NCBI GenBank assembly: GCA_963716865.1
Contig: CAVQUF010000002.1
Location: 86,316 to 150,315 of the forward strand
DNA from: an uncultured Actinomycetes bacterium
GTDB lineage: Bacteria; Actinomycetota; Thermoleophilia; Gaiellales; Gaiellaceae
Direction of reading: 5' to 3'
Length of the DNA: 64,000 bases
The stretch's first letter is position 1; every line of letters begins with the position of its first letter. The notes under the pieces are model-generated. The model made no database searches, was not told where the DNA came from, and saw only the letters and a program-made list of their open reading frames with translations. Positions 1,022-49,803 of this stretch are shown in pieces. Position numbers and translations under genes: made by a program.

Positions 1022-1031
1022 GGACTAAGAC

Positions 1032-1090
1032 GGCCGCACCGGCAAAGCAGGCACGGCCTCTTTGGTCGGCGTCGCAAGCGAGCGCCTTAG
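1032..1090 (+). repeat. Repeat family B, copy 1 (59-nt structured intergenic repeat)
   Basis: GGCCGCACCGGCAAAGCAGGCACGGCCTCTTTGGTCGGCGTCGCAAGCGAGCGCCTTAG. It is 56/59 identical to 4996..5054 and lies between the stop at 1021 and the GTG at 1108. Confidence 0.8.
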
Positions 1091-13130: not shown

Positions 13131-13232
13131 GGCGTCGCTTGCGATGCCGGCCTCAGGACGTGCGGGCTCGGCCTGCGCGTCCGTCTGAAATGACCGGTCG
13201 AGCCGATGGCGCTGTTCCGAAACCGTCGCTAG
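13131..13232 (+). repeat. Repeat family A, copy 1 (double hairpin + invariant tail + third hairpin)
   Basis: GGCGTCGCTTGCGATGCC..GACGTGCGGGCTCGGCCTGCGCGTCCGTCTGAAATGACCGGTCGA, then CGATGG..CCGTCG..CTAG. Starts 5 nt after the stop at 13126. Confidence 0.8.
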
Positions 13233-14584: not shown

Positions 14585-15790
14585 GTGGCCGAGCGGCTCA
14601 TATTCGACGTGCTCGTCGTCGGGAGCGGGGCCTCAGGGCTCGCCGCCGCGGTGTCGGCCGAGACGACCGGCGCGCGCGTCGGTCTCGTCACCAAGGGAGC
14701 GTTGCAGTCCTGCAACTCGGCCAAGGCCCAGGGAGGCATCCAGGCGGCGTTCGGCGAGGACGACTCCCCGGAACAGCACGGCGAGGACGTCTGGCAGAGC
14801 TCCCACGAGACCGCCGACCGCCACCTCGTGGAGGTGCTGACCGGCGAGGCGCCGGGCGCGATCCACTGGCTCGAGGAACACGGGGTCGAGTTCACCAGGG
14901 AGAACGGCGGCTACCGGCTCGCCCGCTGCGGTGGCGCGAGCCGCAAGCGCCTGCTCCAGGTCGGCGACCGTACCGGCCACGCGATCACCACCGCCCTCCG
15001 CGACGCGTTCCTCGCCTCGGACGGCGAGGCCCTGCCCAACTGCCCGCTCGTCGCACTCGAGCCCGCCGGGAACGGCTGGCTCGCGACCTGCCGCCGGAAG
15101 AACGGAGAGGACGTCACGATCGACGCGGCCGCCGTCGTGCTCGCCGCCGGCGGGCGCTGCTACCGCGAGGCCGAGGAGCGCCGCGAGCTTTCGACCAACC
15201 ACCCCGGCGCGACCGGCGAGGTGACGCAGATCGCGCTCGACCTCGGCGCCGAGAGCCGCGACCTCGACGCGCTCCAGTACCACCCGAACGGCGGCGCCTG
15301 GCCTCCGACGATGCAGGGCTACTCGATCCCCGAGACCACCCGCGCCTACGGAGCGACGCTCCTCAACGCCGACGGGGACGAGTTCACCGACCCGCTCGGG
15401 CCGCGCGACACGGTCTCGCAGGCGATCTTCGACGAGGTGGAGGGCGGGCGCGGAGTCGAGACGCCCGACGGCCGCCCCGCGGTCCTGCTCGACACGACCC
15501 GGATCGCCCAGGGCGACGCCGAGATCTCGCTTCCCTACATGCTGCGCCGTTACCGTTCCGCCGGAATCGACCCGCTCGGGCAGGCGATCCTGACCTACCC
15601 CGTCCTCCACTACCAGAACGGCGGCCTCGTCATCGACGAGCGCTCGGAGACGACCCTCGAGGGCCTGTTCGCGTGCGGCGAGATCGCCGGCGGCACACAC
15701 GGGCGCAACCGGATGATGGGGAACAGCCTGCTCGAGTGCACCGTCTTCGGACGCCGGGCAGGCGCAGCCGCCGCGGAGAAGGCGGCGTGA
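14585..15790 (+). CDS. FAD-binding oxidoreductase, fumarate reductase/succinate dehydrogenase/L-aspartate oxidase flavoprotein family, short form (no C-terminal helical domain)
   Basis: DVLVVGSGASGLAAA, AKAQGGI, LQYHPNG, GLFACGEIAGGTHGRNRMMGNSLLECTVFGRRAG; 401 aa. Confidence 0.8.
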   Translation: MAERLIFDVLVVGSGASGLAAAVSAETTGARVGLVTKGALQSCNSAKAQGGIQAAFGEDDSPEQHGEDVWQSSHETADRHLVEVLTGEAPGAIHWLEEHGVEFTRENGGYRLARCGGASRKRLLQVGDRTGHAITTALRDAFLASDGEALPNCPLVALEPAGNGWLATCRRKNGEDVTIDAAAVVLAAGGRCYREAEERRELSTNHPGATGEVTQIALDLGAESRDLDALQYHPNGGAWPPTMQGYSIPETTRAYGATLLNADGDEFTDPLGPRDTVSQAIFDEVEGGRGVETPDGRPAVLLDTTRIAQGDAEISLPYMLRRYRSAGIDPLGQAILTYPVLHYQNGGLVIDERSETTLEGLFACGEIAGGTHGRNRMMGNSLLECTVFGRRAGAAAAEKAA

Positions 15791-15861
15791 GACGCCGCTT
15801 GCGGTGTCGACATCAGGCCGGACGGGCTTTGCTCGCCCGGCCGTCTGAAATGACCGGTCGA
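15791..15861 (+). repeat. Repeat family A, copy 2
   Basis: GACGCCGCTTGCGGTGTC..GGCCGGACGGGCTTTGCTCGCCCGGCCGTCTGAAATGACCGGTCGA, immediately after the stop at 15790. Confidence 0.8.
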
Positions 15862-15887
15862 TGCGCCTGTCGTCAGGAGAAGGCCGC

Positions 15888-16784
15888 ATGAGTCTGGTAG
15901 TGACCGACCTGCGCCAGGCCGTCGAGGACGCGGCTGCCTACCTCTACGTCTGGGCGCTGAAGGACATCCCGCAGGACCTGCGCGACGCGCTCGTGGCGGC
16001 CAGGGACCGCGAAACCTCGACGCCGGGCAAGCGCGTACTGGAGACGATCGTCCGCAACGTCGAGATCGCGGACGACCGCGAGAACCTCGTCTGCCAGGAC
16101 ACGGGGATCGCGGTCTACATGTGCCGTGTCGGAGAAGGCTTCCCGCTCCACCCGGTCCGGATCTACGAGGCGCTCAAGGCCGGCACCGAGCGCGCGACGA
16201 TCGAGCACCCGCTTCGCTCGAACGCCGTCCACACGATCACCCGGGAGAACACCGGGCCGAACACGGGCTACCGGCTCCCGATCGTGCACTGGGAGTTCGT
16301 GCCCGACTGGGACGGCCTCGACGTCAAGTGCGTGCCGAAGGGCTCGGGCTCGGAGAACATGAGCTTCCTGAAGATGTGCGTCCCCGCCGACGGCGTGAAG
16401 GGGATCAAGCAGTTCGTGCTCGAGTCGATCGTCGACGCGGGCGGCAAGCCGTGCCCGCCCGGGATCGTCGGCGTCGGCATCGGCGGCTCGGCCGACTACG
16501 CGATGTACCTCGCCAAGGAGGCGATCGCGCGCCCCATCGGAACCCGCAACCCCGACCCGCACGTGGCGCAGCTCGAGGACGAGCTCTACGGGCTGCTGAA
16601 CGAGACCGGCATCGGGCCGATGGGGCTCGGCGGCGACGTCACCGTCCTCAACTGCCACATAGAGCACGCCGACACGCACATGACCCTGAACCCCGTGGCC
16701 GTCAACTACCAGTGCTGGGCGGCGCGCCGCGCGAGCGCGCATATCGCCGCCGACGGCACGATCGACTACGACCGGGAGGCCTGA
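15888..16784 (+). CDS. Fe-S type hydro-lyase, tartrate/fumarate subfamily, alpha subunit (class I fumarase / TtdA-like)
   Basis: VCQDTGIAVYM, VPKGSGSENMS, GVGIGGSAD. ATG 15888 is preceded by AGGAGAAGG; the track ORF starts at 15861, inside the repeat. Confidence 0.85.
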   Translation: MSLVVTDLRQAVEDAAAYLYVWALKDIPQDLRDALVAARDRETSTPGKRVLETIVRNVEIADDRENLVCQDTGIAVYMCRVGEGFPLHPVRIYEALKAGTERATIEHPLRSNAVHTITRENTGPNTGYRLPIVHWEFVPDWDGLDVKCVPKGSGSENMSFLKMCVPADGVKGIKQFVLESIVDAGGKPCPPGIVGVGIGGSADYAMYLAKEAIARPIGTRNPDPHVAQLEDELYGLLNETGIGPMGLGGDVTVLNCHIEHADTHMTLNPVAVNYQCWAARRASAHIAADGTIDYDREA

Positions 16785-21762: not shown

Positions 21763-21861
21763 GGCGCCGCTTGCGGCGCCGTCCTCAGGACGCGCGGGCT
21801 TACCCGCGCGTCCGTCTGAAATGACCGGTCGAACCGGTGGACGTCTGGGAAACCGGACTAG
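21763..21861 (+). repeat. Repeat family A, copy 3 (best-formed copy)
   Basis: GGCGCCGCTTGCGGCGCC GTCCTCAG GACGCGCGGG-CTTA-CCCGCGCGTC CGTCTGAAATGACCGGTCGA, then CCGGT..ACCGG..CTAG. Confidence 0.85.
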
Positions 21862-48363: not shown

Positions 48364-48401
48364 CACGTCCACGCACGGCCCGGCCCAGGCTGCCCCAAAA
48401 A

Positions 48402-48472
48402 GGCGCCGCTTGCGGCGCCGTTCCCAGGAGGCGCGGGCTTTGCCCGTGCGTCCGTCTGAAATGACCGGTCGA
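48402..48472 (+). repeat. Repeat family A, copy 4
   Basis: GGCGCCGCTTGCGGCGCC GTTCCCAG GAGGCGCGGGC-TTT-GCCCGTGCGTC CGTCTGAAATGACCGGTCGA. Confidence 0.8.
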
Positions 48473-48552
48473 GGCGCGGTTCACCAGAGCCGCGAAAGCG
48501 CATTGGTTTCTTTTTCTTCCTCGCGGCCGTCTTCTGCGCGAGCTTCGAGAAA

Positions 48553-49803
48553 GTGCAGTGGAACGTGGCCGGGTCCGTGTTCCTCGCCGACCTGACAGCG
48601 CTCGGCTTCCTCGGCTCGTTCGCGCTCGACCGTCTCGGCTCGTCGCGCGGCGTCGGACGGGTGCCGCGGACCGCGGCCGTGCTGCTCGTGTTCCTCGGCG
48701 CGTTCCTGCTCGTCTACCTGATCGGCTTCTTCAACCTCGAGACGAGCCAGGCGCTGAGCCAGTTCGGCAAGGGGATCGTCAAGTGGCTGATCCACTTCGC
48801 GTTCCTGATCGTCGGCGTCATCTATCTGACCGGGCGCTCGGCGCGGTACTTCTGGCGCACGCTCGCGTGGTTCCTGGGCGGGATCGCCGCCAACGCCGCC
48901 TACGGGATCCTGCAGCTTGCCTCGGCCCAGGCCGGCCACAACCTCGACTCGGTGTTCCTCGTGCCGCTGACGCGAGGCGCCAGCCAGATCAACGTCTACG
49001 GCGCGGTCAACGGCACGAACGTGTACCGGCCGAACGCGCTGACGGGCGACCCGAACCACCTCGGGATCATGCTGCTGATGCCGATCCTGATCCTGACGCC
49101 GATCTACCTGCGGCTCGGGCGGGGACACCGGCTCCGGCGCTGGCTCGCGGCCCTGATCGCGTTCCTGCTGATCGTCGAGCTCGCGACGCTCTCGCGCAGC
49201 GGGCTGCTCGGGCTGACGGTCGGCGCCTTCGTCCTGCTGATTCCGTACCGGCATCTGCTCTTCTCGCGCCTCGCGATCCTTCCGCTCATGCTCGTCGTGA
49301 TCCCGGTCGCCTACGAGGTCTACCGCCGGCGGCACTTCTTCGACGTCGTGATCCGCTCGCGGCTCTCGCGCGGGACCGGGACGAACACGCACCTCGACGT
49401 CTACGCCTTCGTCCCGAAGATCCTGCACGTGCACCCGTTCTTCGGCCTCGGCTTCAACAACTTCTCGGTCTACTACGAGTTCGTCACCGGCAAGACGAAC
49501 TGGGGGCCGCACTCGTACTACGTGGCGCTGCTCGTCGAGGGCGGGCTCGTCGGGACCGCGCTTTTTGCGGTCTTTCTCTGGTTCCTGTTCACGAAGCTCG
49601 CGGCGGCGCGGCGGCTCGGGCGCGCGCTCTCGGCCGCCCACGACCCCCTGGCGGCACGTGTGCGGCCGCTGGCGTGGGGGATGACCGCGGCGCTCGTCGG
49701 GACGATGGCCGCGAACGTCTTCTACCTGACGATGTCGTTCCTCTACTTCTACGTCTTCGTGATGCTCGCGCTCGTGACACCGGCGGTCTTCTCGAAGCGG
49801 TGA
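48553..49803 (+). CDS. O-antigen ligase/polymerase family (Wzy_C-like) membrane protein, copy 2
   Basis: VELATLSRSGLLGL and GPHSYYVALLVEGGLVG motifs. The frame is open from 48460 and encodes a further TM-like IGFFFFLAAVF with no canonical start. Confidence 0.8.
   Translation: MQWNVAGSVFLADLTALGFLGSFALDRLGSSRGVGRVPRTAAVLLVFLGAFLLVYLIGFFNLETSQALSQFGKGIVKWLIHFAFLIVGVIYLTGRSARYFWRTLAWFLGGIAANAAYGILQLASAQAGHNLDSVFLVPLTRGASQINVYGAVNGTNVYRPNALTGDPNHLGIMLLMPILILTPIYLRLGRGHRLRRWLAALIAFLLIVELATLSRSGLLGLTVGAFVLLIPYRHLLFSRLAILPLMLVVIPVAYEVYRRRHFFDVVIRSRLSRGTGTNTHLDVYAFVPKILHVHPFFGLGFNNFSVYYEFVTGKTNWGPHSYYVALLVEGGLVGTALFAVFLWFLFTKLAAARRLGRALSAAHDPLAARVRPLAWGMTAALVGTMAANVFYLTMSFLYFYVFVMLALVTPAVFSKR

Follow-up and report, generated by a model that had tools for sequence, protein, structure and literature searches.

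The four hairpin-bearing copies that lie in the window (the whole 64,000-nucleotide stretch of DNA analyzed here) are members of a dispersed repeat family and not a local regulatory motif. This mobile repeat family of the Gaiellaceae, which was previously undescribed, comprises three subfamilies, one of which sits at junctions between overlapping genes in the manner of MIRUs. We consider it probable that the family consists of non-autonomous mobile DNA repeats that settle next to stops, include MIRU-like units (subfamily B), and spread through a single-stranded intermediate with the help of an enzyme acting in trans. The earlier note on this DNA had described the four copies without the MIRU-like junction subfamily, its mini-ORF, or the placement at stop codons.

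To our knowledge, the mechanism that moves MIRU-type repeats has awaited an explanation since 1997. The family described here provides material for that question in the form of hundreds of copies, near-complete long-read genomes, and many pairs of filled and empty sites. Its three subfamilies share one core but carry different 3' modules, and the apparently strand-specific fold of that core narrows the range of possible mechanisms. Gaiellaceae are among the most abundant lineages in soil, and the repeats are usable as strain markers.

Anatomy and distribution of the repeat family

The exact 21-mer noticed originally occurs in the window at positions 13181, 15841, 21812, and 48452, always on the plus strand, whereas 100 shuffles of the sequence give an expectation of 0 matches. 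The four copies start 5, 1, 15, and 39 nt past the stop of a plus-strand gene, in agreement with the 1 to 40 nt given in the earlier note, and their cores score 89.5–92.1 bits with a covariance model (CM). Two shorter units lie on the minus strand. The features of the window are as follows.

1025..1090, minus strand: short subfamily C unit, CTAA followed by GGCGCTCGCTTGCGACGCC..CCGTCT and then TAG; CM 34.8 bits
4991..5054, minus strand: short subfamily C unit composed of hairpin 1, hairpin 2, and CCGTC..; CM 41.1 bits
13129..13232, plus strand: copy 1, subfamily A, ending in GAAACCGTCGCTAG; CM 91.8 bits; between convergent genes, 2 nt past the TAG stop of an Fe-ADH-like gene
15791..15891, plus strand: copy 2, subfamily B, 101 nt, with filled and empty orthologous sites; at the stop/start overlap of an FAD flavoprotein gene and a fumarase-type hydro-lyase gene
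15787..15891, plus strand: predicted mini-ORF of copy 2, 34 codons plus stop; translation VRRRLRCRHQAGRALLARPSEMTGRCACRQEKAA
21761..21861, plus strand: copy 3, complete subfamily A unit with ACTGA as left flank and ACTAG as end; CM 90.8 bits
21763..21780, plus strand: hairpin 1 of copy 3, 7-bp stem GGCGCCG/CGGCGCC with a CTTG tetraloop
21788..21813, plus strand: hairpin 2 of copy 3, GC-rich 12-bp stem whose two outermost pairs include the start (first two bases) of the "tail"
21812..21832, plus strand: conserved box of copy 3, CCGTCTGAAATGACCGGTCGA, which contains the palindrome GACCGGTC
21849..21861, plus strand: right terminus of subfamily A in copy 3, GAAACCGGACTAG, a second CCGTCT-like end plus CTAG
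48400..48474, plus strand: copy 4, core of a decayed junction-type copy; CM 89.5 bits; between glycosyltransferase and Wzy-like genes

All units share a common core that begins with the left end (C)YRA followed by GGC and continues through hairpin 1 (CTTG loop), a TCAGG linker, and hairpin 2 to CCGTCT; an A occupies position -1 of the left end in 55 of 60 copies. Subfamily C units (~62 nt) stop at CCGTCT before TAA or TAG and often form head-to-tail arrays in which neighboring units share that triplet. Subfamily A units (~103 nt), represented by copies 1 and 3 of the window, extend the core with the box GAAATGACCGGTCGA and a variable stretch, and end in a second CCGTCTCTAG, with CCGTCTC before TAG (written ..GAAACCGTCTCTAG). 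CTAG is found 25–32 nt past the box in 15 of 60 A copies, compared with about 1 expected. The GAAACCG..CTAG that the earlier note saw in both copies 1 and 3 is the right terminus of subfamily A, and its boundary in copy 3 is set by empty orthologous sites. In subfamily B, to which copy 2 belongs, the core and box are followed by ..CCGTCAGGAGGT-N6-RTGA.

The ends of the basic unit form short inverted repeats, CTAAGGCG on the left and, on the right, the reverse complement CTAAGACG, with 7 of 8 positions in agreement. The units have stop-like triplets on either side, and the boundary fits a duplication of the triplet and an insertion 3' of TRR by a unit that itself ends in TRR equally well. Head-to-tail arrays contain up to five units with periods of ~62 and ~103 nt, and in mosaic copies the hairpin module is inverted or the hairpin 2 loop contains another unit. 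Arrays of five long units or three to four short units lie in the window's genome (G000) at C4:299112-299630, C3:537778-538041, and C5:451673-451851, with periods of 102–103 nt for long and 54–64 nt for short units; these are likely variable-number loci that could serve as strain markers. Two composites of the same genome (C5:288584-288785 and C3:235487-235681) show, respectively, a reversed short unit within the hairpin 2 loop of a long unit and a hairpin module inverted relative to the box. Copies reduced to the tail were considered as possible ends of a larger element. This idea was discarded, as ordinary genes lie nearby and orthologous sites show 5'-deleted remnants.

The family is found throughout the window's genome, a 3.0-Mb assembly of five contigs with 70% G+C. 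The genome-wide search for the 21-mer proposed in the earlier note, which allowed up to two mismatches, returned 72 copies (37 on the forward and 35 on the reverse strand), while the reversed control returned 0. An nhmmer profile built from box copies detects 146 copies on both strands. The distribution is high-copy and extragenic, with only ten of the 146 inside gene calls that are a crude, GC3-based approximation. Two stretches of the assembly, C1:510938-519005 and C3:1-8072, are 99.7% identical over 8 kb, and other stretches of C1 and C3 are 88–93% identical; this looks like overlapping contig ends or a strain variant that was collapsed, with the result that the counts include a few copies twice (e.g., C1:518852 and C3:7920).

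By exact match, 22 of the 25 genomes examined from the genus contain the box, and all 16 sister-family genomes lack it. Of 37 genera sampled across the order, 8 contain diverged relatives according to the covariance model of the 75-nt core; nearly all of these belong to Gaiellaceae, and the distribution is patchy. An exact-match scan of public genomes found the box in uncultured soil Gaiellaceae/Gaiellales, all of them MAGs, and annotated plasmid and phage collections contained no match to the repeat. A known family, for which a scan of Rfam had been suggested, did not emerge: Rfam 15 gave 0 matches in the window at the gathering score and noise only at permissive thresholds, where the top match reached 20.6 bits against a gathering score of 113. 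Our literature search for repeats in Gaiella or Gaiellaceae found no paper.

Mobility and placement beside stop-like triplets

Comparison of orthologous sites shows that the family is mobile, with units gained and lost. Copy 2 is filled in G000, G014, G001, G023, and G017; most other members of the genus have an empty site at which the neighboring genes overlap (GGAGAGGGCTGCATGA joined to GCG). The site of copy 3 is empty in the nearest relatives G001, G014, and G005. The empty site of G005 reads ..CCAAACGAGACTAG joined to GATCC.., and the filled site of the window reads ..CCAAACGAGACTGA, then GGCGCC...GGGAAACCGGACTAG, then GATCC...; G023 retains only a 5'-truncated remnant at this position. 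At the NTGA junction of copy 4, intact B-type copies are present in G063 and G017, the site is empty in G015, G001, and G060, and the element is decayed or truncated in the window, G023, and G014, the last of which carries a 5'-deleted remnant. When elements at 118 loci of other species were compared with the window's genome, 75 flank pairs were recovered, many of them empty in the window's genome; dozens of these sites thus add to the filled and empty alleles of copies 2, 3, and 4.

A feature of the copy 2 site, a 17-nt overlap of BLAST matches, resembled a target duplication of ~16 nt. We rejected this interpretation because the SD-N6-RTGA end is kept among independent B copies and hence belongs to the element. 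The targets themselves tend to resemble the right end of the element that occupies them. For B units this is SD-N-RTGA and for A units AAAC..CTAG; in arrays, the end of a further unit takes this role.

Downstream of copy 4 (window 48474-48560), the Wzy-like gene of G023 begins at an ATGA directly past the element, where the ATG of the window reads ACC. The window's Wzy-like gene must either start further downstream (GTG near 48553) or have had its start disturbed by decay of the element.

Units insert beside the stop-like trinucleotides TAA, TAG, or TGA and end in another. Left junctions were scored on nhmmer-defined copies. For about 40 of the 70 copies co-oriented with the gene on their left, hairpin 1 starts 1 nt past the stop of that gene. 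A stop-like flank accompanies 51 of the 70 co-oriented copies compared with 15 of the 54 opposed ones (p=7e-7), and next to co-oriented copies this triplet is very often the upstream gene's stop codon. Insertion beside TAA, TAG, or TGA together with selection against intragenic insertions would lead to this placement.

Fold, strand, and candidate routes of spread

The two hairpins with preserved pairing that the earlier note read from four copies are borne out across the family. We tested a defined structure against 60 distinct cores of 75 nt taken from the window's genome and other species. Under this structure, 94.9% of cells are paired compared with 30–46% when the partners are slid, and none of 500 shuffles reaches any of the observed pairing measures. 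Both partners have changed in thirteen pairs. Hairpin 1 (columns 3-9 with 14-20 of alignment A2) contributes 4 of its 7 pairs, with 97.1% of cells paired, and hairpin 2 (columns 28-39 with 43-54) contributes 9 of its 12, with 94.9% paired. The outer pairs of hairpin 2 are formed by the first two bases of what had been termed an invariant tail, and covariation links columns 29 and 53. A possible extension of this hairpin by TCA/TGA is conserved and displays no covariation. The tail is indeed invariant within the window, but genome-wide several of its positions vary and its first two bases belong to the stem. A third covarying hairpin, proposed for copies 1 and 3, did not hold up as a feature of the family: the extensions fold at -9.3 kcal/mol compared with -8.6 for shuffled sequences (p=0.08), and no common fold is predicted across copies.

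The fold carries a strong strand signature. G.T pairs outnumber A.C pairs 185:21 overall (89:7 in the window's genome and 96:14 in other species), although part of this excess could be inherited from a few founder copies and the counts could therefore represent fewer independent events. This asymmetry points to selection of the fold on one strand, which is what an RNA or a single-stranded DNA form would show. The earlier proposal of an RNA or single-stranded DNA structure combined with a sequence-specific site, as opposed to a generic terminator, is supported by the covarying one-strand fold and the conserved box. The ratio is 29:3 for copies opposed to both neighboring genes and 31:2 for co-oriented copies; the same excess in both settings argues against structure in the mRNA at the site of residence and for a strand-specific form that exists during propagation.

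These ratios bear directly on the view that the repeat is a cis-acting RNA module (a terminator, mRNA stabilizer, processing site, or 3'-UTR small RNA) that was selected by the host and spread by its usefulness. Stable covarying hairpins with G.U pairs would be expected of such a module, as would the frequent position of hairpin 1 directly past a stop codon and the 28 copies that lie between convergent genes. However, copies opposed to both neighbors are nearly as common as co-oriented ones (40 compared with 50) and have an equally strand-specific fold, and neither hairpin is followed by a T-run. The module is also at odds with the tandem arrays, the nesting of copies, the recent gains in individual species, and the failure of any Rfam family to reach threshold. 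We judge this explanation very improbable. Two suggestions of the earlier note, a 3'-UTR small RNA and a protein-bound terminator module, are likewise unsupported, given that copies occur in every orientation to genes, form head-to-tail arrays, nest within each other, and differ in presence at orthologous sites. Individual copies may have acquired a secondary, exapted role.

A top-strand-specific fold is a property that the repeats share with elements moved by HUH enzymes, and they could accordingly be REP/REPIN elements mobilized by a RAYT (a Y1 HUH transposase) or PATEs derived from IS200/IS605. REP, BIME, and REPIN sequences comprise hundreds of extragenic hairpin repeats per genome, occur in clusters and mosaics, and show compensatory changes. 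The Gaiellaceae family has the same high copy number outside genes, the same clusters and mosaics, and a structure maintained by compensatory changes; it also inserts beside a fixed short motif and ends in a similar one. With PATEs and IS91-type rolling-circle (HUH) elements, it has in common strand-specific hairpins, insertion at a short motif without long duplication, a target that resembles the end of the element, and tandem head-to-tail products. Y1 genes are present in 43 of 48 genomes of the genus (0–5 per genome).

The distribution of these Y1 genes does not follow that of the repeats. Their number does not track repeat copy number, G056 carries copies without a Y1 gene, G002, G013, and G020 have Y1 genes without box copies, and an element lies within 1.5 kb of just 1 of 31 Y1 loci of the genus. 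The search for a RAYT gene elsewhere in the window's genome, as the earlier note had advised, yielded a single Y1 (RAYT-like) gene (L031:1300-2100, G000 C4:650690-651310). On each side of this gene lies a copy of another palindrome, GGCCGTGTCCGAGGGACAGTCCCTCGGACACGGCC (GGGACAGTCCC core), for which the genome has about 13 loci; the gene and its palindrome look like a second, classical REP/RAYT system. Furthermore, a hallmark of REP/RAYT systems is an imperfect palindrome of 20–40 nt with a GTAG-type head, often arranged as inverted doublets, whereas the Gaiellaceae unit is a double hairpin with a non-palindromic box, has no GTAG-type head, forms head-to-tail arrays, and in one subfamily contains a predicted translated frame. 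Orientation shows no bias with respect to gene strand, and relative to GC skew (12:9 compared with 25:28, p=0.6) it gives no indication of a replication-strand bias, in a genome whose skew is weak and limits the power of this comparison. The target also differs from that of PATEs and IS91-type elements in being a stop-like triplet, and neither a linked Y1 nor an IS91-type Y2 gene was detected, the Y2 search (PF04986) having returned no match with controls equally silent. The earlier suggestion of a REP/RAYT-type element therefore stands with regard to a REP-like, genome-wide repeat but not with regard to the RAYT, and we regard mobilization by such an enzyme as quite unlikely.

The main rival to our reading is a classical MITE moved by a DDE transposase, either an IS5/Harbinger-like one that duplicates TNA or an IS630-like one that duplicates the TA of CTAG, with hairpins that are incidental or were selected later. 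The bacterial MITEs Correia, RUP, and Nezha resemble the Gaiellaceae repeats in that they are non-autonomous, measure 60–150 nt, have short inverted ends and TA- or TNA-like flanks, and are polymorphic for presence or absence. In the Gaiellaceae repeats, this view would account for the stop-like trinucleotides at both ends, the inverted ends (CTAAGGCG and the reverse complement CTAAGACG), and the enrichment of CTAG at the right end. It also draws on an IS5-type element with CTAG-flanked inverted repeats (GAGGGTTTGGCGSAAAA) in one member of the genus (G056, L210:200-2530). However, that element, which carries the sole PF01609 transposase of this single-contig genome, has ends unrelated to the repeat family. 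PF01609 (IS4/IS5) is absent from the five high-copy genomes G000, G016, G023, G005, and G147, and PF13358 (IS630) from all eight genomes tested. No multi-copy IS exists in the window's genome, whose long repeats are contig overlaps and paralogues only. Neither a parent IS nor, among the families searched, a matching transposase was found. The inverted ends span only about 8 nt, whereas the conserved features are internal hairpins that covary and are strand-specific in any context; cut-and-paste transposition of double-stranded DNA requires neither property. We consider a DDE-type MITE improbable.

Among the families searched with responsive controls or clear outcome (Y1, PF01609, and PF13358), no mobilizing enzyme was found. 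In the reading we favor, the hairpins and conserved box would be what the mobilizing machinery recognizes, and the element would spread via a single-stranded, top-strand-specific intermediate processed by an enzyme that acts in trans. This intermediate would integrate beside sequences resembling the 3' end of the element, which would explain the head-to-tail arrays. A joint reading goes further and has an undescribed mover integrate a top-strand copy (DNA, or RNA copied back) of both these units and MIRU-like high-GC repeats. Integration would then occur next to stop codons or mimics of the element's own 3' end, the enzyme would be neither of the RAYT/IS200 type nor of the IS5/IS630 type, and the box GAAATGACCGGTCGA would be its recognition site. 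We think it unlikely that this wider reading is correct.

Subfamily B at gene junctions and its likeness to MIRUs

B units occupy former RTGA stop/start overlaps, and their frame, SD, and new RTGA rebuild both overlaps. The empty B sites are RTGA overlaps; about 328 such overlaps, as defined by crude gene calls, are still unoccupied in the window's genome. In this genome, all 21 copies with an RTGA left junction contain an intact 34-codon frame that ends in RTGA and is accompanied by an SD. The stop of the frame lies exactly 30 nt past the box and overlaps an SD-preceded RTG start; the 101-nt insert corresponds to 3n+2, and the consensus of the frame is M/V-RRRLRR..PSE[LM]TGR... Of 21 TGAGAC-type copies from other species, 15 carry the same frame, and one more is an in-frame +3 variant. 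The mini-ORF of copy 2 exemplifies this arrangement: it begins with a GTG that shares bases with the upstream TGA (GTGA) and closes with a TGA that does so with the downstream ATG (ATGA at 15888), and an SD, GGAGAAGG, lies 6 nt upstream of the latter overlap.

MIRUs (Supply et al. 1997, summarized in PMC12548453) are short dispersed repeats of Actinomycetota that are apparently mobile and have no known transposase. According to the summary in PMC12548453, they insert at gene starts or operon junctions, contain an internal ORF whose 4-nt overlap with the downstream gene couples the two, and can form tandem arrays. The Gaiellaceae family is likewise dispersed and apparently mobile with tandem arrays, and subfamily B, whose 101-nt units have RTGA on either end of a 34-codon frame, matches the MIRU layout closely. 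The likeness claimed here is one of design only, and the lineage, Gaiellales, is a different one. Moreover, one of the three Gaiellaceae subfamilies is adapted to junctions whereas the others are intergenic in any orientation, and the Gaiellaceae units have two covarying strand-specific hairpins and a 21-nt box, neither of which appears in the account of MIRUs in PMC12548453.

By their design, B units would relay ribosomes to the downstream gene, as proposed for MIRUs, in which case insertion into an operon would cost little. Judged by its sequence, the junction subfamily would constitute a natural "bicistronic relay" cassette composed of a stop, hairpin, mini-ORF, SD, and start, and, if the relay holds, a selfish element able to enter operons at little cost.

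The repeats can also be expected to confuse gene calling through false starts, as well as operon prediction and motif discovery in Gaiellaceae. In the window, the listed ORF start of the hydro-lyase alpha gene, ATG 15861, is formed with the last base of the repeat box, and the conserved start is ATG 15888 behind the SD. Automatic annotation thus probably adds nine false codons to this gene.
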